A model generated the notes under the pieces. That model ran no database searches. It saw only the letters and a list, made by a program, of their open reading frames with translations, and had not been told where the DNA came from. A program made the translations under genes and the position numbers. Positions 10,282 through 58,243 of a stretch of 64,000 bases of DNA are shown piece after piece. Within the stretch, counting starts at the first letter, position 1; each line of letters starts with the position of its first letter. The stretch is from an archaeon. GTDB lineage: Archaea; Aenigmatarchaeota; Aenigmatarchaeia; Aenigmatarchaeales; JACQIB01. The DNA lies in contig DATDSO010000004.1 in the NCBI GenBank assembly GCA_035291225.1, positions 331,130-395,129 on the forward strand, read 5' to 3'.

Positions 10282-11712
10282 ATGCAAAGCAAATCTGCAA
10301 AACTTTCAGAAAAACAAACTGCCCGCGGAATGAAATACATAATGGCAGATGGTGCAAGCAATGCTGCGAAAGATTCTGTATTGACAAGCTATCTTACTCC
10401 ACTCGCGCTTGCGCTTGGAGCAAGCAATCAGCAAATCGGTTTTCTCAATAGCTTCCCTTACTTGTTCGGAAATTTAATCCAGCCTGTTGCCGGAAAATAT
10501 ATTGAAACCCGCGGCGGCAAAAAAAGCACAACTTTAGTAATGCAGTTTTTCGCGCCAATTTTAATTTTGCTGATGGCTTTTCTCCCAATTTCAGCAGTCG
10601 CTGATAAAGTTTTTTATCTTATAATCTTTACAACTTTCTATCAAATAATTTACGGCTTTCAGTCAACAGCATGGATATCTTGGATTGCAGATATTGTTCC
10701 TGAAAAAACGCGCGGGGAATTTTTTGGGAAGAGAAACACAATTGCGGGATTTGTTTCCCTCGGAGTCAGCTTTGTGGCCGGATGGCTTCTGAGTGCTACT
10801 AGAGGAAATTTTGGCTTCACAATAATTTTTGGCTTCGCTGCGCTTGCCGGAGTTGTTTCATATTTTCTTCTGAGGCAGGTTCCAAAAAGCCCTCAGGGCC
10901 CGCAAGGCAGTTTCAATTTGAGGGTAAAAGAGTTTTTCAGAGATTTTCGCTCGCATAAAAATTTCTCAAATTTCACTTACTACATTTTCTTTCTGAATTT
11001 TGGAGTTTTCATAGCTTCCCCATTTTTTGTCGTTTATATGCTGAAAGATTTGGGAATTGGATATTTTGGCTACGCAGTTTTAATTGCTGCTGAGGCGGTA
11101 GTCGCAATTTTTTCCCAGAAATATTGGGGAAAGCTGATGGACAGGTTTGGAGACAGGACAATTTTAGGAGTCTGCGGAATTTTGATTTCACTTGTTCCAA
11201 TTGCCTTTATTTTCACCGGGAATTTCTTTACACTGCTTTTCGCGCAGGCGCTCGCAGGTTTTGCGTGGGCTGGGTTTGATTTAGCAAGATTCAATTTTTT
11301 GATTGATGCAACGCCGCCGCAAAAAAGGCCGAGCTTTATTGCGAACCACAAACTTTTGGGAGGGTTTGCAATTTTTGCCGGCGGTCTTGTTGGCGGATTT
11401 TTGGCCGGAGCTTTTTCTGGGGTGGAATTTTTCTTTTTAGAAGGATTGAAAATTCTTTTCGCGCTCGCTTTTGTTTTCAGAATCCTTCCGCTGATAATTT
11501 TCCTCCCTCGCCTCCGTGAGCAGCGCGTGCCGGCTTCTCAGGCGGCTCCCGTAAAAAATATTTTCTGGCGCGCTATTGCGGTCTATCCCACACAGGGCAT
11601 TTTGCATGAGCTCATGTATATCGGGCATCTGGAGCGCGATTTTATCAAAAAGGGAAGAAAAATTTACAGGAATTTCACGGACAGATTTGGCAGGAAAAAT
11701 AAGCTTTATTAA
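10282..11712 (+). CDS. MFS-type membrane transporter
   Basis: 476 aa with about 12 hydrophobic segments in the two-half MFS layout. Confidence 0.75.
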   Translation: MQSKSAKLSEKQTARGMKYIMADGASNAAKDSVLTSYLTPLALALGASNQQIGFLNSFPYLFGNLIQPVAGKYIETRGGKKSTTLVMQFFAPILILLMAFLPISAVADKVFYLIIFTTFYQIIYGFQSTAWISWIADIVPEKTRGEFFGKRNTIAGFVSLGVSFVAGWLLSATRGNFGFTIIFGFAALAGVVSYFLLRQVPKSPQGPQGSFNLRVKEFFRDFRSHKNFSNFTYYIFFLNFGVFIASPFFVVYMLKDLGIGYFGYAVLIAAEAVVAIFSQKYWGKLMDRFGDRTILGVCGILISLVPIAFIFTGNFFTLLFAQALAGFAWAGFDLARFNFLIDATPPQKRPSFIANHKLLGGFAIFAGGLVGGFLAGAFSGVEFFFLEGLKILFALAFVFRILPLIIFLPRLREQRVPASQAAPVKNIFWRAIAVYPTQGILHELMYIGHLERDFIKKGRKIYRNFTDRFGRKNKLY

Positions 11713-34738: not shown

Positions 34739-36063
34739 AAACAGTTTTCCTTTGCGGTGGAATTGGCAAGCGCATGCATCCGATTGCAGAAGAAAAATTT
34801 CTGCTGAAGTTCGCTGGAAAAACTTTGCTGGAGCGCCATATTGATGCTGCGCGCTCAGCAGGCTTGAAAGATTTTGTGATTATTGGAAACCCGCATAATA
34901 TTGAAAAAATAAAGGATTTGTGTTCAAGACAAAATGGAGCAAATTTTGAATTTGCTGTGCAGAAAGAGCCAAAAGGAATGGCGGACGCAATGCTTTCCGC
35001 CAGCCACATTTTTGACGGAGAAGATTTCATTGTTGTTAACACAAATGATATTTTTGAGCCAAGCGCTTACAAAAATATTTTGGACGCTGCGAAAAATTCC
35101 GAGCACGATTCTCTGCTTACTGGATATGAAGTGCAAAAATATTTTCCCGGCGGTTATTTCCGCACAAACGAAAATGGAGAAATGATAGAGCTTGTTGAAA
35201 AGCCGGGCGCGGAAAATATGCCGAGCAATCTTCTGAATATTGTTTTGCACTTGCACAGAAACACAAAAAAGCACTTCAAGCATTGGGCGGAAACAAAATC
35301 TGAAAAGGATGATATTTATGAGCGGGCTCTGACTGAAATGGTGAAGAGCGGCGGAAAAATAAAAGTTGTTCCCTATTCAGGATTCTGGACTGCAATAAAA
35401 TATCCATGGCACATTCATGACGCGGCAGAATTTTTCATGAAAAATCAAGAGAGAAAAATTTCTCCTAATGCGAAAATTTCCGAGCGCGCGGTTGTTGATG
35501 GAAATGTTGTGATTGAAGATGGTGTTAGAATTTTTGAGAACGCTGTTGTGCGCGGACCGGCTTACATCGGAAAAAATACAATCATTGGAAACAACGCGCT
35601 CGTTTGGTCAGGCTCGCATATTGGAGACAACTCCGTTGTGGGATTCTCAACTGAGATAAAGCATTCATACATAGGAGACAACTGCTGGTTTCATTCAAAT
35701 TATGTTGGAGATTCAATTATACTGGACAACACAACTTTCGGAGCAGGAACAATAACAGCAAACCTGCGTTTTGACAATGGAAATGTAAAAGTCAATGTAA
35801 GAGGAGAAAGAGTTGACACAGGCACAGAAAAATTCGGCGCGATTTTCGGAGAGAACTGCAAAACAGGAATCAATTGCGTTATACTTCCGGGAATAAAAAT
35901 CGGGCCGAATAGTTTTGTCGGGCCGCATGTGCATTTGGACGAAGACCTAGAGCCAGACAAAATGATTTTCCTGAAGCAAAGCCATGTAGTAAAAGAAAAC
36001 ACAATAAAGCCCGGGAAAAGCTATGAGGAGTTCAGAAAAAAACTTCCGGATGTTGGGAAGTGA
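34735..36063 (+). CDS. Bifunctional sugar-1-phosphate nucleotidyltransferase / hexapeptide-repeat acetyltransferase (archaeal GlmU-like)
   Basis: N-terminal nucleotidyltransferase fold (LCGGIGKRM) and C-terminal left-handed beta-helix hexapeptide repeats. Confidence 0.8.
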   Translation: MKTVFLCGGIGKRMHPIAEEKFLLKFAGKTLLERHIDAARSAGLKDFVIIGNPHNIEKIKDLCSRQNGANFEFAVQKEPKGMADAMLSASHIFDGEDFIVVNTNDIFEPSAYKNILDAAKNSEHDSLLTGYEVQKYFPGGYFRTNENGEMIELVEKPGAENMPSNLLNIVLHLHRNTKKHFKHWAETKSEKDDIYERALTEMVKSGGKIKVVPYSGFWTAIKYPWHIHDAAEFFMKNQERKISPNAKISERAVVDGNVVIEDGVRIFENAVVRGPAYIGKNTIIGNNALVWSGSHIGDNSVVGFSTEIKHSYIGDNCWFHSNYVGDSIILDNTTFGAGTITANLRFDNGNVKVNVRGERVDTGTEKFGAIFGENCKTGINCVILPGIKIGPNSFVGPHVHLDEDLEPDKMIFLKQSHVVKENTIKPGKSYEEFRKKLPDVGK

Positions 36064-36067
36064 TTCT

Positions 36068-37252
36068 ATGCGCCTCTACGAATTTGAAAGCAAGCAAATG
36101 CTGAAAAAAAATGGAATAAAAATTCCGCAGTCAGTTCTTTCCACTTCTGCGATTTCTGAAATCCCGTTCAACAGCGAAATTGCTGTGAAAGCCCAAGTGC
36201 TTTCTAATGGAAGGGGAAAAGCTGGCGGAGTGAAAGTTTTTTCCAGCCCAGAGGAAGCGAAAAATTTTGCGAACTCTTTGCTCGGCTCGGTTTTGCTGAA
36301 AGAAAAAGTGAAGTCTGTTTTGATTGAAAAGAAAATTAAAACAAAAAACGAATTCTACATAAGCTTTGCTTATGACACTGACACGCAGCTGCCGGTTTTG
36401 GTTTTGAGCAAATCCGGCGGAGTGGATGTCGCCGAGCTAACAAAAAACAGCTGGCTTGCGAAAATTCCCATTGACCCTTTGCTTGGGCTGAAAGAGTGGC
36501 AGGCGAGAGATGCTGCTGTTGACGCAGGATTCGCAAGCGAGCTGATTCCAAAAATTTCTGATTTTGCCTTGAGGCTTTACAATGTTTTCTCATCAGAGGA
36601 CTGCAGGCTTTTGGAAATAAATCCGCTGAGCCTGACAGAAGAAGGAGAGCTTGTTGCAGTCGGCGCGCTTATAGATTTGGACAACGATGCGGGCTATAAG
36701 CACAAGGAAAGAAATTATCCGCCGCGCATGCCCGGAGTTGGACGCGAACTTACAGACGGAGAAATGCTTGTGAAAAAATCTGACGAGGCAGATTACCGCG
36801 GCTCAATAAAATTTATTGAGCTCGGCGGAGAAATTGGATTTCTCGCAGCAGGTGGGGGCGGGAGCATGGCTGCGATGGACGCTTTAATTATTGCCGGAGG
36901 AAATCCCGCGAACTATGCGGAATTTTCCGGAGACCCGCCGAAAGAAAAAGTCTACGCGCTCGCGAAAGCAATTCTCTCGCAGAAAAATTTGGCCGGCTTG
37001 TGGATTGTCGGGGCAATTGCAAATTTCACGCGCATGGACCAGACAATGCAGGGAGTTGTTGAAGCCCTGAGAGAAGCAAAGCCAAAATATCCGATTGTTG
37101 TTCGGCGCTCGGGCCCGTATGAAAAAGAAGGATTGCAAATGCTGAAAGATGTTGGGGTCGAGCTCGGGCTTGACATTGAAGTGCACGGCTCTGAAGTTTC
37201 AATGACAGCGACTGCGAAGACAATTGCGGAGAAAGTTAAAAAACAAAAATGA
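36068..37252 (+). CDS. Succinyl-CoA synthetase beta-like ATP-grasp subunit (possible citryl-CoA synthetase / ACL beta)
   Basis: ATP-grasp N-terminus (QVLSNGRGKAGGVKV) and CoA-ligase C-terminus (GFLAAGGGGSMAAMD...GGNPANYAEF); start set at first Met after upstream stop. Confidence 0.75.
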   Translation: MRLYEFESKQMLKKNGIKIPQSVLSTSAISEIPFNSEIAVKAQVLSNGRGKAGGVKVFSSPEEAKNFANSLLGSVLLKEKVKSVLIEKKIKTKNEFYISFAYDTDTQLPVLVLSKSGGVDVAELTKNSWLAKIPIDPLLGLKEWQARDAAVDAGFASELIPKISDFALRLYNVFSSEDCRLLEINPLSLTEEGELVAVGALIDLDNDAGYKHKERNYPPRMPGVGRELTDGEMLVKKSDEADYRGSIKFIELGGEIGFLAAGGGGSMAAMDALIIAGGNPANYAEFSGDPPKEKVYALAKAILSQKNLAGLWIVGAIANFTRMDQTMQGVVEALREAKPKYPIVVRRSGPYEKEGLQMLKDVGVELGLDIEVHGSEVSMTATAKTIAEKVKKQK

Positions 37253-38163
37253 TTTTTATGAGCATTCTAATAAACAAAGAAACAAAAGTTTTAATTCAGG
37301 GAATTACTGGACGCAGCGGGCAGGTTGCGCTCCACACAATGAAAGAATACGGGACAAAAGTTTTGGCAGGTGTGACTCCGGGGAAGGGTGGGCAGGAAGT
37401 TGAAGGGGTTCCGGTTTTCAATTCAGTTCACGAGGCTTTGAAAAAATTTCCGGAAATAAATTGCTCAGCAATTTATGTTCCGCCCGCAGCTTGCCGCGAG
37501 GCAGTGATTGAGGCGGTTTCAAATGGAATTAAATTGGTGAATGTAATTACAGAAGGAGTTGCGATTCAGGACACGGTTCAAATGCTGCGCTACGCAAAAC
37601 TTTATGGAGCGCGAATTGTCGGGCCATCTTCAATTGGAATTTTAACTCCGAAGCAATGCAAGATTGGAGTTCTCGGCGGCTCTGCTGTGGACACTGACAA
37701 AATTTATTTTCCCGGAAGCATTGGAGTGATTTCGAAAAGCGGAGGCATGACAAATGAAACTGCATGGGTTGTGCGTTCAGCTGGATTGGGCCAGTCAACT
37801 GTTGTTGGAATTGGCGGGGATGTGATTTTGGGAACTGATTTTGTGGATTTGCTGAAAATGTTTGAGGCAGACAAGGAAACAAAAGGGGTTGTAATTTTCG
37901 GAGAGCCTGGCGGGACTTATGAGGACAAGATTGCCGAGGCTGTCAGGAAAAAAGAATTCACAAAACCGATTGCTGCTTTTATTGCAGGAGTTTTCGCCGA
38001 GAGGCTTCCGCACGGAACGCAGTTCGGCCACGCGGGCGCGCTGATTGAAAATGGAAGGGGCTCGCCTGTGCAGAAAATTAAAATTTTGAAAGAGGCTGGG
38101 GTTTTAATTGCGGAAACGCATGATATGTTGGGGGAGGTTATAAAAAGAGCTATTGAAAATTAA
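37249..38163 (+). CDS. Succinyl-CoA synthetase alpha-like CoA-binding subunit
   Basis: KVLIQGITGRSGQ CoA-binding start and phosphohistidine loop GTQFGHAGA. Confidence 0.8.
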   Translation: MIFMSILINKETKVLIQGITGRSGQVALHTMKEYGTKVLAGVTPGKGGQEVEGVPVFNSVHEALKKFPEINCSAIYVPPAACREAVIEAVSNGIKLVNVITEGVAIQDTVQMLRYAKLYGARIVGPSSIGILTPKQCKIGVLGGSAVDTDKIYFPGSIGVISKSGGMTNETAWVVRSAGLGQSTVVGIGGDVILGTDFVDLLKMFEADKETKGVVIFGEPGGTYEDKIAEAVRKKEFTKPIAAFIAGVFAERLPHGTQFGHAGALIENGRGSPVQKIKILKEAGVLIAETHDMLGEVIKRAIEN

Positions 38164-38169
38164 TTAAAG

Positions 38170-38268
38170 GGCTCGCAGGTTTTCGTAAACTCAAACCCGC
38201 TCGCGACTAATGTGGAATAAAAATATTTTCACACATTAGTTAGCGAGGCTCATGGGTTTACCCTGAGC
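38170..38268. other. Structured intergenic region: GC-rich repeat copy 2 plus two stem-loops
   Basis: ggctcgcaggttttcgtaaactcaaacccgctcgc (38170-38204); inverted repeats actaatgtg/cacattagt (38207-38240) and gctcatggg/accctgagc (38248-38268). Confidence 0.5.
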
Positions 38269-38296
38269 CGAGCAAATCAAAATAAGTTGTGATAAC

Positions 38297-39025
38297 ATGA
38301 AATGGAAAACAAAAATTTCAGATGCGAACGATGAAGGCACAAAGATTAGAGGAAAAGCTCTTGAAGAGCTTGTGGGAAAAATTTCCTATGCTGAAATGGT
38401 TTTTCTTTTGCTGCGCGGAAAAATGCCAACGCCTGAAGAAAGCAAAATGATGGAAGCGCTTTTGGTTTGCGTGGCAGAGCACAGCATTGCTGTTCCTTCT
38501 ATAACTGCTGCGCGCATAGCAGCGAGCGGCTCGGGAAGTTTTGTGCAGGGAGTTGCCGCAGGAATTTTGGGAATAGGCGAGCACCACGGAGGCGCAGGCG
38601 AGGGCTGCGCAAAAGTTCTGCAGGAAAATTTGGGAAAGCCTGCTGCTGAAGTTGTCGCAAAATTTTCCGCGAGAAAAGAAAGGCTGCCGGGCTTTGGGCA
38701 CAAAATTTATACAACAGACCCGCGCACGAAAAAACTTTTTTCAATTGCAAAAGAGCTTGGGATTTTTGGGAGCTACTGCAATTTTGCGCTTGAGCTCGAA
38801 AAAGAATTGGAGCGCGCGGGTGGAAAAAAACTCTGCCTTAATGTTGACGGCGCGATTGCCGCAATAATTTCTGAAATGGGATTCCACTGGAAAAGCGGCC
38901 GCGCGTTTTTTGTGATTCCGCGCACAGCAGGAATTTCCGCGCATGTTATTGAGGAACTGATGGAGGAGAAGCCGTTTTCAAAAAGATTGGAAGAGGGGGA
39001 ATATGAATATTTGGGGGAGAAATAA
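38297..39025 (+). CDS. Citrate synthase-fold small protein (citryl-CoA lyase-like)
   Basis: GEHHGGAGEG (cf. GPLHGGANE) and PGFGHKIYTTDPR (citrate synthase signature); 242 aa, like short stand-alone citryl-CoA lyases. Confidence 0.65.
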   Translation: MKWKTKISDANDEGTKIRGKALEELVGKISYAEMVFLLLRGKMPTPEESKMMEALLVCVAEHSIAVPSITAARIAASGSGSFVQGVAAGILGIGEHHGGAGEGCAKVLQENLGKPAAEVVAKFSARKERLPGFGHKIYTTDPRTKKLFSIAKELGIFGSYCNFALELEKELERAGGKKLCLNVDGAIAAIISEMGFHWKSGRAFFVIPRTAGISAHVIEELMEEKPFSKRLEEGEYEYLGEK

Positions 39026-45727: not shown

Positions 45728-45916
45728 GGGCTCGTGGTATAGCTTGGTATTATTCGAGGTTATGTTGGAATTTTACCAGCACCTCAACGGGACCTCGCGA
45801 CCTGTGTTCAAACGGCCTTTTCTTTCATGGAAAGAAAAGAACCGCGGAAAAGAAAGATATTAAATCCAAAAAGGCAGATAGCCTTCGGATATATGAAAAT
45901 CACAGCGAGCCCACCA
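45728..45916 (+). tRNA. tRNA-Pro (anticodon CGG inferred) with two introns (33/34 and 59/60) and encoded CCA
   Basis: Acceptor GGGCUCG pairs CGAGCCC then A-CCA; U8, A14, G18G19; anticodon stem CGAGG/CCUCG; T-stem CUGUG/CACAG; introns 45762-45787 and 45813-45899 each flanked by a 4 bp helix with 3 nt bulges (BHB). Confidence 0.65.
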
Positions 45917-50742: not shown

Positions 50743-51216
50743 TCACTTTTGTTTTAATAACTCCACTCTTATTGATTTTATATCATCCTCTTTTAGTTTT
50801 GAAAAAGCGGCCATTGTATTCGCATAAAAATCCGACGCATATTTTTTAACCTGATTTATCGTTGAATCTAAAACGCCCTTATCTGGATAGTATTGCAAAT
50901 CACTTCTTGCTTCGGAAGCTTCATAAATCATCTCAATATCTTTCTCGGAATAAAATTTTCTTAAAAAAGTTTTCATGAAAAGCAAAGAGCATGCATGTAT
51001 TTCACACTTAACTCCTATTCTCATGAGAAGCGCATATAGGCAATAGTACATTGTGTAATAAGAGGCGGAAGCAATCCAGATTTTACTCTCAAGCTTTTTC
51101 AACTGCTCCAAGGACTCTTCTGCCATTTTTAGATAAGAGCGCGAAACGTTTTCATTTGGCTCTACAAGCTCCAGCCCATTTTTTGCGCGGAGGCACCACC
51201 TAATATTTAATGCCAT
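50743..51216 (-). CDS. HEPN-domain protein (putative toxin of HEPN/MNT pair 1)
   Basis: All-alpha 157 aa protein with R-x7-H (RIGVKCEIH); overlaps upstream MNT gene by 17 nt. Confidence 0.55.
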   Translation of the reverse strand: MALNIRWCLRAKNGLELVEPNENVSRSYLKMAEESLEQLKKLESKIWIASASYYTMYYCLYALLMRIGVKCEIHACSLLFMKTFLRKFYSEKDIEMIYEASEARSDLQYYPDKGVLDSTINQVKKYASDFYANTMAAFSKLKEDDIKSIRVELLKQK

Positions 51217-51781
51217 AAAAATCTGACCAAATTTTATTTATGAAATCTTCCAAACCTTTAATTATTATGTGGTTCGACACTATCTCGCTTATCATAGGGC
51301 TTTTTTCTTTTAGCGCGGAAATAAACTGCTTCTCAGAATAAATTTTCCCGCTTATATTTAAATCGTACTTTAGCGCGACTTTTTTTATCTGAGCCCTGCT
51401 TCCATCAACAACAAACAAGTCGGTGTCGGAGGTTTTTTTCTCCGCGCCTCTTGCGTAGCTCCCGAATATGCAAATTATTTTTCCATCAATTTCTTTCATT
51501 GCCAAGTTTATTTTAGGATTTTTTTGCTGGAAAACTTTAGAATTTTCATTTTCAGCCTCCAGCAGAAATGATTTCATAACAGGGCTGCGCAGATTAAGCG
51601 AATAGTATTTTTGTTTCCCCTCTATCTTTGAAAGCAAAATATCATTTGCTTCCATTTTCTTCAGAGTTGATGCTATCCATTTCTGGCTTATTGAAACCTT
51701 CCCAACAATCTGCCTTCCGTAAATTCTTCTGTTATAATCTCCCAAAAAAAGCTTCAATATCTCAGCTTCTTTATTGTGCAT
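51200..51781 (-). CDS. Minimal nucleotidyltransferase (MNT) with N-terminal wHTH (putative antitoxin of pair 1)
   Basis: GSYARGAEKKTSDTDLFVV nucleotidyltransferase motif; N-terminal wHTH-like region. Confidence 0.65.
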   Translation of the reverse strand: MHNKEAEILKLFLGDYNRRIYGRQIVGKVSISQKWIASTLKKMEANDILLSKIEGKQKYYSLNLRSPVMKSFLLEAENENSKVFQQKNPKINLAMKEIDGKIICIFGSYARGAEKKTSDTDLFVVDGSRAQIKKVALKYDLNISGKIYSEKQFISALKEKSPMISEIVSNHIIIKGLEDFINKIWSDFYGIKY

Positions 51782-51825
51782 AATAATACACATATGTGTA
51801 GTTTTCTACTCTTTATAAACTTTTA

Positions 51826-52254
51826 TCATAAGCTTGAAATTTCTATTTCGCCGCCGGCTTTAATTTTATTTTTTTCAACAAAACCCGCCTTAACTTCAAG
51901 CGCAAATTTTATCGGGCCCGGCGGAGAATAAATTTTGCACTCTTTCTCAAAGCAGGTTTCCATTCTATCTGTTCCAATAATTCTTTTCTCAGAGTCAATC
52001 CAAATTATGTCCAGAGGAAAATTTACATTTTTCATCCAGAAGCCCTCGCTTGTGGGAGAGGGAAAAATAAAAATCATTGGGCTTGGCGCGGCGCGATACA
52101 TTAAGCCGCGCGAGCGCGTCAGCATATTGTCAGCGACTTCAGCTGAAAAAGTTTTGCCGCCAATTTTTATTTCAGCGGTTTTCGGCTTGAGATAAAAAAT
52201 TAGCAAAAGCAAAATTATTATGAAGCCGGCGAAATAAATTTTGTCCGTGGGCAT
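51826..52254 (-). CDS. DUF192-family protein with N-terminal membrane anchor
   Basis: FWMKNVNFPLDIIWID block typical of DUF192 (COG1430-like). Confidence 0.65.
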   Translation of the reverse strand: MPTDKIYFAGFIIILLLLIFYLKPKTAEIKIGGKTFSAEVADNMLTRSRGLMYRAAPSPMIFIFPSPTSEGFWMKNVNFPLDIIWIDSEKRIIGTDRMETCFEKECKIYSPPGPIKFALEVKAGFVEKNKIKAGGEIEISSL

Positions 52255-52286
52255 TATTTAAATTTGACTTCCCATTTTAAAAGCAC

Positions 52287-52568
52287 GGGCTCGTGGTCTA
52301 GTCCATCCCTTCTTTCTTTTTCCGAAAGAAGAGCTTCAAAAAAGAAAGAAGCGATAGGTTTTCGGAAGAAAGAAAAAGACGGATGGAGAAATTGGAATGA
52401 AGCGCCCGCGCTTCAGCACGGGAAGAGCTTCAACACAATGACGCGACGTTCGCAACGTCGAAGCCGTGGGTTCAAACCCAAGCCTTTTTCGTGAAAAAGG
52501 CTAGGGCTTATCCAAAAAAGCAGATAGCCGCTTCGCGGGTATATCAGAAATTCCCACCGAGTCCACCA
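52287..52568 (+). tRNA. tRNA-Ala (anticodon CGC) with T-loop intron and a long unresolved D-region insertion; encoded CCA
   Basis: Acceptor GGGCUCG/CGAGUCC with G3:U70, A73-CCA; anticodon arm CGACG-UUCGCAA-CGUCG (52444-52460); T-stem GUGGG/CCCAC split by 52477-52551; D-stem GUCU/UGAC split by about 135 nt. Confidence 0.6.
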
Positions 52569-52934: not shown

Positions 52935-53123
52935 TGGTGGGCGGGCAGAGATTTCCGAACCGCGGAAACCTAAGGTTTCCTCAGTTCAAGGTTTTTCCTG
53001 ATCCTTCCTCAGGTTCTTGCTTCGCAATTATTTTATTTGAACTCTGGACCCCCACATTATCAGTGTGGTGCTCGTTGGCATTTTTCTTTTTAGAAAAATT
53101 TAACCAGGCTGAGCCACCCGCCC
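52935..53123 (-). tRNA. tRNA-Ile (anticodon GAU) with D-loop and T-loop introns; encoded CCA
   Basis: Minus strand: GGGCGGG-U-G-GCUC-AGCCUGGUUA, 27 nt insert, GAGC; anticodon arm CCACA-CUGAUAA-UGUGG; T-stem CAGAG/CUCUG split by about 84 nt; acceptor 3' CCCGCCC-A-CCA. Confidence 0.65.
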
Positions 53124-57236: not shown

Positions 57237-57641
57237 TCAAAAGTTTTTCATAACCTCGCTTTTTGCAAAATCAAAAATCCTCTCGCCATGCTTCACAGCG
57301 CTTTCAGCATCTCCGCGGCTCAGCAGACGGTTCCCATACTCTGCGTCGGATTTTATTTGCAGAAGCGCGGACAAATGTTTCACTGCGTTCTTTATGTCAT
57401 TGCTGTTAGGGTCAATGCTGTTCAGCAGCGCGAGCGCGTCTGTGTGATTTTCGCTTGCGTTCCTTAAACCTTTTTTCCATATACAAAGCGCATCCGCAGA
57501 GGAAATCGCGCAGTGTATAGCGCTTATCACGCAGCCGTTCCACTCCTCCGCCTCGAGCGAGCGGCTCATTGAGTTCTTGCACTCTTCCGCGCGCTTTAGA
57601 TAATCTTTTGCGTAATGCCTGTCGAGGTTTCGGGTTTTCAT
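57237..57641 (-). CDS. HEPN-domain protein (putative toxin of HEPN/MNT pair 2)
   Basis: 134 aa all-alpha protein with archaeal HEPN-like blocks (WNGCVISAIHCAISSADAL, NAVKHLSALL...AEYG); overlaps MNT gene by 4 nt. Confidence 0.6.
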   Translation of the reverse strand: MKTRNLDRHYAKDYLKRAEECKNSMSRSLEAEEWNGCVISAIHCAISSADALCIWKKGLRNASENHTDALALLNSIDPNSNDIKNAVKHLSALLQIKSDAEYGNRLLSRGDAESAVKHGERIFDFAKSEVMKNF

Positions 57642-58228
57642 CTTTCTATCACTGCAATGCCTTTTTTAATTTCCTCTAAAAGTTTTTTATTTTTGAATTT
57701 CGAATATTCTTTTTCTGTCATTACAATAGGAGAAAGTTTATTGCCATATTTTTGCAGGCAAAAGTCGCTGAACTTTTCTAAAGAGGCGCCGACCTTTCTC
57801 TTTTCTTTATCTCTATTGATCAGAATAAATAAGTCTATGTCGCTTGTTGGCCTTTCTTTCCCATCGGGAATAGAGCCGAAAATAATAGTTTTTTTCACGC
57901 CCGCAACACGGCCAAGAAATAACGCTATATCTTTTTTCAACTCATTTAGAGGTGAAGATTTTATTTTCATAGAAAAGTTTTGCAAAAAGCTGTAGGCATA
58001 ACTTCTTTTATTCAGCTTCCATATTGTAGAATTTCCAACTCTGGACGGGTTTATTAAATTAAGTTCGTGGAGTGATTTTAGAACTTTATTTACAGAGTCT
58101 GGAGAAACCCCTGTAATTGAGGCTATTTCCCTTTCGCTTGTTGTAGACTCTTCCGCAAGCAAGTATTTTACAAGTTTTAGCTTAGCCCACGATCCTATAA
58201 GATTCTCCGCAAATTCTTTGAATATCAT
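57638..58228 (-). CDS. Minimal nucleotidyltransferase with N-terminal wHTH (putative antitoxin of pair 2)
   Basis: GSIPDGKERPTSDIDLFIL nucleotidyltransferase motif; N-terminal wHTH (SEREIASITGVSPDSVNKVLKSLHELNLI). Confidence 0.65.
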   Translation of the reverse strand: MIFKEFAENLIGSWAKLKLVKYLLAEESTTSEREIASITGVSPDSVNKVLKSLHELNLINPSRVGNSTIWKLNKRSYAYSFLQNFSMKIKSSPLNELKKDIALFLGRVAGVKKTIIFGSIPDGKERPTSDIDLFILINRDKEKRKVGASLEKFSDFCLQKYGNKLSPIVMTEKEYSKFKNKKLLEEIKKGIAVIER

Positions 58229-58243
58229 GAAATATAGTAGCAT

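Follow-up and report, generated by a model that had tools for sequence, protein, structure and literature searches.

A probable tRNA-Ala(CGC) gene with endonuclease-type introns in its D-loop and T-loop

The interrupted gene and its natural alleles

The 64-kb stretch of archaeal DNA analyzed here (the window) contains a 282-nt locus at 52287–52568 on the + strand that we interpret as a tRNA-Ala(CGC) gene with endonuclease-type introns, a reading to which we assign a probability of about 90%. An earlier reading made from the letters of this DNA (the sequence-only reading) had proposed tRNA-Ala from a GGGCUCG/CGAGUCC acceptor stem that includes G3:U70 and is followed by A73 and an encoded CCA, and from an anticodon arm with the anticodon CGC. 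All of these elements were recovered where that reading had placed them, the anticodon arm being CGACG-UUCGCAA-CGUCG with CGC at 52453–52455. Between the T-stem strands GUGGG and CCCAC lie UUCAAA, exactly 75 nt and a U, and the D-stem strands GUCU (52296–52299) and UGAC (52439–52442) are spaced 139 nt apart. Agreement of this extent goes well beyond chance. Removal of the inserts in silico gave a 75-nt cloverleaf, GGGCUCGUGGUCUAGUGGAAUGACGCGACGUUCGCAACGUCGAAGCCGUGGGUUCAAAUCCCACCGAGUCCACCA, with an ARAGORN score of 119.8, a value typical of a genuine tRNA. The spliced product contains U8, A14, G18-G19, A21, U33, U54-U55-C56 and A58, and the ARAGORN drawing depicts G3-U70 as a g+t pair. Folding of the 282-nt strand gave z = −5.6 relative to shuffled sequences.

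When the unspliced DNA was searched, neither ARAGORN nor Rfam at gathering thresholds reported a tRNA anywhere in the 64-kb window. In a permissive Rfam scan of the locus the best tRNA match was partial and scored 13.4 bits, the remaining matches being noise such as miRNA-like hairpins. Brute-force enumeration of splice boundaries scored by ARAGORN confirmed tRNA-Ala; it did not place the boundaries in the D region, because the ARAGORN score is independent of D-loop content. The exact boundaries were taken from natural alleles.

With these boundaries the gene starts with exon 1 (GGGCUCGUGGUCUAG, 52287–52301, 15 nt), which comprises the 5′ strand of the acceptor stem with G3, then U8, G9, the 5′ strand of the D-stem, A14 and G15. 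It is followed by insert 1 (52302–52392), 91 nt located between positions 15 and 16 (15/16) and forming a long hairpin with a pyrimidine-rich arm. Exon 2 is a 5-nt micro-exon, UGGAA (52393–52397), that supplies U16, G18, G19, A20 and A21. The next 41 nt (52398–52438) are insert 2, a putative intron at 21/22. Exon 3 (52439–52476, 38 nt) contains the 3′ strand of the D-stem, G26, the anticodon arm, the variable loop, the 5′ strand of the T-stem and U54 to A59. Insert 3 (52477–52551, 75 nt) interrupts the T-loop at 59/60 and consists of a 5′ hairpin module, AUCCAAAAAAGCAGAUAGCC, a 3′ hairpin and AGAAAU. Exon 4 (52552–52568, 17 nt) completes the gene with U60, CCCAC, CGAGUCC (including U70), A73 and CCA. 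All of these parts are on the + strand, and exons 1, 3 and 4 are identical in five alleles. Within 282 nt the four exons follow one another in order on a single strand, which is the arrangement of neither a split nor a permuted tRNA gene. The D-region insert of about 135 nt, whose boundaries the sequence-only reading had left open, is thus divided into two inserts around UGGAA. That reading had also found no evident G18-G19 beside either D-stem strand; these residues exist in the micro-exon, which adjoins neither strand.

The gene is arranged head-to-head with a DUF192 gene, and DUF192 orthologs with 86, 80, 78 and 72% identity were fetched with their contigs. A metagenome scan with the anticodon/T exon pattern produced one match, on an incomplete contig (L031). 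Addition of this match and of a locus found through FttA (L028, DUF192 86% identical) gave six distinct alleles, the window included, with DUF192 identities from 100% down to 72%. Five different insert patterns were found among these six orthologous genes. The window allele (also present as L032) has 91, 41 and 75 nt at 15/16, 21/22 and 59/60, respectively. Three alleles have no insert at 21/22: L033 carries 91 nt at 15/16 and 151 nt at 59/60, L028 carries 88 and 127 nt, and L035 (with L036) carries 82 and 81 nt. The allele represented by L037, L038 and L031 lacks an insert at 15/16 and has 14 nt at 21/22 and 127 nt at 59/60, while L039 has a single insert of 131 nt at 59/60. A T-loop insert is therefore present at the same site in all six alleles, in agreement with the 75-nt T-loop intron that had been proposed at the outset and that we removed in silico.

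All of the alleles except L039 splice to an identical 75-nt tRNA, with 75/75 exon positions identical. In the same five alleles the 150 nt upstream are only 79–92% identical and the inserts mostly 34–75% identical, with one exception: for insert 1, L033 and the window share 99% identity. In L039, 16 exon positions differ; four anticodon-stem pairs and one T-stem pair are changed on both sides and all are still paired. Pairing was retained in 100% of cells in L039, compared with 27–45% when the partner columns were slid. The alanine set of G3:U70, A73 and CGC is kept in all six alleles. The invariant exons, the diverged flanks and inserts, and the compensation in L039 show that selection acts on the spliced RNA rather than on the whole DNA stretch. 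Exons are thus conserved or compensated across the series and inserts are variable or absent in relatives, and together with in silico splicing this bears out the original assignment to tRNA-Ala.

A separate observation concerns the similarity between the window and L033 (2154–2467). Over exon 1, insert 1 and exon 2 (window 52287–52397) the two are identical at 110 of 111 positions, adjacent DNA is only about 80% identical, and the T-loop insert of L033 is of a different, Pro-like type. This mosaic sequence suggests recent recombination or gene conversion inside the tRNA gene.

Upstream of the gene is a TATA-like box, TTATTTAAAT (52254–52263, +), 24–33 nt from the mature 5′ end, that is a putative archaeal promoter. 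It is conserved as (C)ATTATTTAA(A/G)T in L033, L028, L035 and L037, and TATA-like boxes are found at the same distance upstream of the tRNA-Pro and tRNA-Ile genes of the window described below. The box directly adjoins the start codon (52252–52254) of the divergently oriented DUF192 gene, and this may explain part of its conservation.

Splice-site geometry and predicted order of splicing

The junctions of every insert were scored for the canonical archaeal motif, in which exon nucleotides −6 to −3 of the 5′ splice site pair with intron nucleotides −6 to −3 of the 3′ splice site, and in which each cut follows the second nucleotide of a 3-nt bulge. For random site pairs in the window, the background was 2.3% for four of four pairs and 16% for at least three of four. 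With final boundaries, 24 of all 25 inserts examined in the lineage had at least three of the four central-helix pairs and nine had all four; these inserts include orthologs and are not independent, and each had one to six alternative boundaries. Judged against the bulge-helix-bulge (BHB) and its relaxed forms (hBH, HBh′ and bulge-helix-loop (BHL)), the junctions of inserts 1 and 3 have a relaxed form, whereas insert 2 is near-canonical only in a splicing intermediate.

Insert 1 has a central helix with three of four pairs (GUCU/AGAA) and an inner helix of 6 bp. In L028 the corresponding central helix is perfect (GUCU/AGAU) and the inner helix is 13 bp long. The basal stem covaries, being CCAUCC/GGAUGG in the window, CCGCC/GGCGG in L028 and CCACCC/GGGUGG in L035, and the insert is absent from L037/L031 and L039. 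The boundary at 15/16 was chosen as it gives one identical mature tRNA in five alleles and the perfect helix in L028. Our first choice had been 16/17 (UCUA/GAGA, three of four pairs), which was set aside after uninterrupted D-loops were seen in orthologs: the D-loop AGUGGAA fits those of L037, once its 14-nt insert is removed, and of L039 (AGCGGAA). The micro-exon UGGAA is contiguous with UGAC in L033, L028 and L035, and with GUCUAG in L037.

Insert 3 has a central helix of UUCA/AGAA with three of four pairs and an A-A mismatch beside the 5′ bulge; an inner helix is lacking, and the 5-bp T-stem takes the place of the outer helix. All six alleles conserve this relaxed, BHL-like form, with inserts of 75 to 151 nt at the site. 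In folding predictions the helix and a 3-nt AUU bulge on the 3′ side formed spontaneously once only the tRNA stems were imposed, and the splicing-competent fold was 4.1 kcal/mol above the minimum free energy (MFE) structure.

We consider it likely that insert 2 is also spliced. This is the weakest point of our interpretation, because the insert is known from this strain only and because its motif becomes near-canonical only after insert 1 has been removed. Among the alleles found, insert 2 is confined to this strain, where it occurs in two assemblies, and it is precisely absent from L033, L028 and L035. The second assembly is represented by L032, which matches the window at 100% identity but whose contig would end at about window position 10,479, so that the window comes from another contig. 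The start of insert 2 is ambiguous within 52396–52401 (six registers), because AAUGA is repeated at both ends. Since pair counts alone are insufficient, the proposed order of removal is based on the unconstrained MFE structure of the intermediate. When inserts 1 and 3 were removed, a near-canonical BHB for insert 2 was this MFE structure and accounted for 28% of the ensemble. In this structure the D-stem is formed together with a GUG/CAC helix; GAA stays unpaired on the 5′ side, AAU makes a 3-nt bulge on the 3′ side, the inner helix is UGAAGC/GCUUCA, and both predicted cuts are at bulge edges. Insert 2 is accordingly predicted to be an intron that was gained recently and whose removal follows that of insert 1.

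According to the mechanism that we propose, transcription from the upstream TATA box would give a precursor of about 282 nt, which the tRNA splicing endonuclease (EndA) would cut at relaxed BHB motifs. The helices of these motifs would form between the exon nucleotides just upstream of the 5′ splice site and the intron nucleotides just upstream of the 3′ splice site, such that the 5′ strand of the D-stem would supply the helix for intron 1 and U54 to C56 of the T-loop that for intron 3. An RtcB-type ligase would then join the exons. Intron 2 would probably be the last to leave, its 3′ splice site being buried in the primary transcript within an AUUG/CAAU helix that includes two nucleotides of intron 1. 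After the loss of intron 1, G15-U16-G18 could pair with CAC of intron 2, thereby placing both splice sites at bulges.

Several findings weigh against a functional gene with three introns of this kind. The 16/17 register of insert 1 would yield a 77-nt tRNA with two extra D-loop nucleotides. The T-loop inserts of the Ala gene and of the Ile and Leu genes described below have a purine mismatch beside the 5′ bulge and no inner helix, and an endonuclease of relaxed specificity would therefore be needed. A domain scan of 66 window ORFs, each at least 90 aa long, found neither EndA (tRNA_int_endo) nor RtcB. The remaining points concern insert 2, which is flanked by the direct repeat AAUGA and has a 12-mer, GAAGAGCUUCAA, in common with insert 1. 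BHB scoring of the D-region insert gave a relaxed BHB for insert 1 and a central helix with only two of four pairs for insert 2 in the primary transcript. In the MFE structure of that transcript the last two nucleotides of insert 1 take part in the AUUG/CAAU pairing that buries the 3′ splice site of insert 2. The same AUUG/CAAU pairing forms a competing BHB-like motif (local p=110/q=155) at which cleavage would remove part of the D-stem. The rise to three of four pairs after removal of insert 1 is not significant by itself, given the 16% background and six registers.

The same observations on insert 2 could mean that the gene family is real and that this particular allele is impaired. According to this explanation, insert 2 would be a recent local duplication or insertion, with a 12-mer copied from insert 1, that is not spliced or is mis-spliced at the competing motif to give a defective D-arm. 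The copy would yield little or no functional tRNA-Ala(CGC), and GCG codons would then be read by tRNA-Ala(UGC). We regard this as unlikely, while giving it real weight. Removal of insert 2 restores the ortholog sequence exactly, all exons are intact, and the allele occurs in two separate assemblies, with an identical neighboring DUF192 protein on at least 24 contigs on record. Moreover, site 21/22 is used elsewhere with perfect central helices and the same AA↓N bulges, by the 14-nt insert of L037/L031 (GUGG/CCGC) and by a 27-nt insert in the tRNA-Ile gene of the window (UGGU/GCCA), and the near-canonical BHB of the intermediate is the unconstrained MFE structure. Use of the competing AUUG/CAAU motif as the productive site of insert 2 was rejected, since it would delete AUGA, destroy the D-arm and contradict L028, L033 and L035. 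We therefore retain the interpretation that insert 2 is probably an intron of a functional gene.

Other interrupted tRNA genes and shared intron modules

When both strands of the 64 kb were filtered for a 7-bp acceptor stem combined with U8 and a split T-arm, four places were returned. The tRNA-Ala gene and two others each splice to a full tRNA, and the fourth is inside a thymidylate-kinase ORF. The first of the two is a 189-nt tRNA-Pro(CGG) gene at 45728–45916 (+), with exons at 45728–45761, 45788–45812 and 45900–45916 and an ARAGORN score of 117.5 when spliced. Its 26-nt insert at 33/34 fits the hBHBh′ motif perfectly, with GAGG/CCUC pairing, UU↓A and AA↓C as the bulges and UGUUGG/CCAGCA as the inner helix, and its 87-nt insert at 59/60 has all four pairs (UUCA/UGAA). 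The second is a 189-nt tRNA-Ile(GAU) gene at 52935–53123 (−), between FttA and a 79-aa ORF, which scores 121.4 when spliced. Its inserts are the 27 nt at 21/22 mentioned above (53100–53074, inner helix 8 bp) and 84 nt at 59/60 (53035–52952). Walking about 9 kb upstream in the same genome (L041) revealed a class II tRNA-Leu(UAA) gene about 1 kb before the window start (L041 7920–8123, +, 204 nt, 116.9 when spliced). This gene lies between the genes for RNA polymerase subunit D and L18e and has inserts of 47 nt at 37/38 and 71 nt at 59/60, the latter homologous to the Ala T-loop inserts. Unspliced, none of the Ala, Pro, Ile and Leu genes was detected by ARAGORN or Rfam. An insert at 59/60 is thus present in four of the four tRNA genes in about 73 kb of the genome.

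Alignments showed that the T-loop inserts of the Ala, Pro and Leu genes share sequence modules. A 20-mer, ATCCAAAAARGCAGATAGCC, has two matches in the window compared with 0.01 expected, and outside Ala insert 3 it occurs only in the T-loop insert of tRNA-Pro. In the L033 Ala allele the 5′ module of the T-loop insert is of the Pro type, a sign that introns exchange sequence and are not simply copied. A hairpin arm is common to the Pro T-loop insert and the D-loop insert of the L028 Ala allele. As a further observation, a different pair of hairpins (GTGAAAACCTTAAGTTTTCAC) is common to the Ala T-loop inserts of L037 and L039.

The tRNA-Ile gene is also interrupted in relatives. A syntenic tRNA-Ile(GAU) gene (L002 2557–2757, +, MAG (metagenome-assembled genome) CAYJQM01, FttA 63% identical) scores 119.7 when spliced. 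Judged by its sequence, it appears to have four inserts and a 7-nt anticodon micro-exon: 48 nt in the D-loop, 21 nt at 30/31 (CGCU/AGCG, four of four pairs, inner helix 5), 13 nt at 37/38 and 44 nt at 59/60 (UUCA/UGAA, four of four pairs). Placement of the 21-nt insert at 31/32 was rejected, as the helix there has only one of four pairs. Four inserts would exceed the published maximum, because reviews give three per tRNA gene (PMC4390854). In a sister species (L028 441–687 and 1355–1641, MAG CAZROS01) the same tRNA-Ile exons show another interruption pattern, with 13 nt at 20a/21 (one position from the site in the window), an extra 13 nt at 37/38 and a T-loop insert of 146 nt. The whole tRNA-Ile gene with its promoter is inverted there relative to FttA as compared with the window. 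The T-loop inserts of tRNA-Ala and tRNA-Ile in this species contain related palindromic blocks of about 55–62 nt with inverted-repeat ends (TGACATNNTGTGATGT..., L028 503–562 and 1405–1462) that are absent from the window alleles. To judge from their sequence, these blocks may be miniature mobile elements riding inside introns.

We tentatively propose, as a broader possibility that we hold short of probable, that the endonuclease-spliced introns of this lineage form a modular family that is actively evolving. The family would have colonized the T-loop site 59/60 of most or all tRNA genes, together with sites in the D-loop and anticodon arm. As strains and species diverge, its members would be gained and lost, would change in size, in part through small palindromic elements, and would recombine between different tRNA genes. 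The conserved 3′ module of the T-loop inserts may act in enzyme recruitment or as a stable excised RNA. If this is true, the disruption would be at record level, with three introns and a 5-nt micro-exon in the present gene, four introns in a relative and an obligatory splicing order.

We considered it very improbable that the inserts belong to another class of element, either self-splicing group I or group II introns or small transposable elements that landed in the gene. Group I introns do occur in DPANN archaea (PMC6125680), and the palindromic blocks of the L028 T-loop inserts have the look of miniature mobile elements. However, at 13–151 nt (41–91 nt in the window gene) the inserts are too short for group I or group II ribozymes, which require roughly 200 nt or more, and no Rfam intron family was found in the inserts at gathering or permissive thresholds. 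Their boundaries fit BHB geometry and their sites match known sites of archaeal BHB introns (PMC4090602). The palindromic blocks, being optional and internal to the inserts, are passengers and not the unit that is spliced. An inspection of the inserts by eye for C/D-box guide RNAs found only weak box-like strings, which had no Rfam support.

A decayed tRNA pseudogene, or chance tRNA-like fragments riddled with insertions and no longer expressed, would agree with the failure of ARAGORN and Rfam to report a tRNA here and with the low score of the best Rfam match. This explanation is effectively refuted by the conservation of exons versus flanks, as the exons are 100% conserved in five diverged alleles and compensated in the sixth, and we give it hardly any credence. 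The BHB-like junctions and the conserved upstream TATA-like box also argue against it; furthermore, every tRNA gene found in about 73 kb is built alike, and no functional tRNAs would remain if all were defective. A protein-coding origin can be dismissed as next to impossible: a 76-codon ORF at 52264–52494 (+) is present in the mechanical ORF list, but it starts with TTG, alleles differ within it by indels whose lengths (91, 41 and 14 nt) are not divisible by three, and all conservation falls on the tRNA exons, which are invariant.

Genomic setting and relation to known systems

The window consists of archaeal housekeeping DNA and encodes FttA/aCPSF1, proteasome alpha and beta subunits, a Hel308-like helicase, the RNase P proteins Pop5 and Rpp30, and ribosomal proteins including L15e, as well as aIF5B, ABCE1, SMC/ScpAB and ProRS. 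Its GC content is about 42%. FttA is 94–99% identical to fragments of MAG CAZROS01, labeled "uncultured archaeon", and the next FttA matches (62–65%) are in MAGs labeled Aenigmatarchaeota or Nanoarchaeota. These archaeal markers and the relatives of FttA identify the host as a DPANN archaeon whose closest named relatives, by sequence, are Aenigmatarchaeota MAGs.

Three other features of the region were recorded. Three adjacent genes at 36023–39025 (+) contain ATP-grasp/citrate-binding, CoA-binding/CoA-ligase and citrate-synthase C-terminal domains; the domain content marks the cluster as ATP-citrate-lyase-like or citryl-CoA synthetase/lyase-like, an unexpected feature of a reduced DPANN genome. 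Two nucleotidyltransferase (Polbeta/NTP_transf_2) genes are found at 50743–51793 (−) and 57237–58243 (−). A HEPN-domain gene follows one of them and a 157-aa gene without annotation follows the other, and these pairs are likely of the HEPN/MNT toxin-antitoxin type; the pair at 50743–51793 comes directly after the DUF192 gene next to tRNA-Ala. In the same genome but upstream of the window, a GC-rich, structured-looking intergenic stretch of 370 nt (L041 827–1196) had no Rfam match at the gathering threshold and could be an unrecognised structured RNA.

Standard pipelines report no tRNA in the 64-kb window, although three are present and a fourth is just outside it. In such lineages tRNA counts, estimates of genome completeness and claims of missing tRNAs or codon reassignment would be wrong without BHB-aware searches. 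Incomplete predicted tRNA sets of DPANN archaea have been attributed to undetected disrupted genes (PMC5829648, PMC3239211, PMC12397907). The six-allele series and the shared modules constitute a rare natural record of gain, loss and exchange of archaeal tRNA introns. In addition, the 5-nt micro-exon and the predicted obligatory splicing order are directly testable with recombinant endonuclease. In the searchable literature, which is incomplete so that these features may be published elsewhere, we found no description of this lineage, of an insert at 59/60 in every sampled tRNA gene, of the modular intron family, of the 5-nt micro-exon or of the six-allele series.

The locus belongs to the known class of archaeal multi-intron tRNAs and is at the known maximum of three introns. 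For Crenarchaeota and Nanoarchaeota, endonuclease-spliced introns that are non-canonical or multiple are well established, with as many as three in one gene and with 20/21, 22/23, 30/31 and 59/60 among the known sites (PMC4090602, PMC4390854). The sequence-only reading had called the locus unusually long for a tRNA gene; this is fair as to its length, whereas the class itself is known and three introns equal the published archaeal maximum (PMC4390854).

Among the closest counterparts are the three-intron genes of Thermoproteales, such as Pyrobaculum calidifontis pre-tRNA-Glu(UUC) and P. islandicum pre-tRNA-Pro(UGG) (PMC4390854, PMC4090602). Like the present gene, they are colinear, have three short introns at non-canonical sites with strict or relaxed BHB motifs, and are missed by conventional tRNA finders; three is the stated maximum there. 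In contrast, the gene described here is from a mesophile-like DPANN host with about 42% GC, has no intron at the canonical site 37/38, contains long introns (91, 41 and 75 nt) with a 5-nt micro-exon between two D-loop introns, and belongs to a genome in which every tRNA gene sampled has a T-loop intron. In the spread of introns described for Thermoproteales, closely similar introns occur in different tRNA genes and at different positions (PMC4090602), a likeness to the shared modules reported here, whereas relatedness in this lineage is modular, with a 5′ hairpin, a central A-rich block, a 3′ hairpin and optional palindromic blocks.

Increased disruption of tRNA genes and loop-bearing endonucleases are also reported for DPANN archaea (PMC5829648, PMC3239211, PMC12397907). 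The same superphylum has broad-specificity enzymes, the ε2 EndA of ARMAN-2 and the α4 EndA with an L3 loop, and relaxed BHB or bulge-helix-loop substrates (PMC3239211, PMC5829648, PMC12397907) such as the T-loop inserts would provide. Within a population of Caldiarchaeum subterraneum, tRNA-Thr(GGU) similarly differs in intron presence at one locus between close genomes, indicating gain on short time scales (PMC3293823). That case differs from ours, in which there is no recombinase-bearing mobile element or split fragment and the changes are short gains and losses at three sites together with changes in the size of the T-loop insert. Finally, the nuclear tRNA genes of the red alga Cyanidioschyzon merolae, a eukaryote (PMC3728597), resemble the present gene in having up to three BHB-type introns, including ones at D-loop and T-loop sites. 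There, RT-PCR demonstrated in which order the introns are removed, whereas here the order is predicted from folding.

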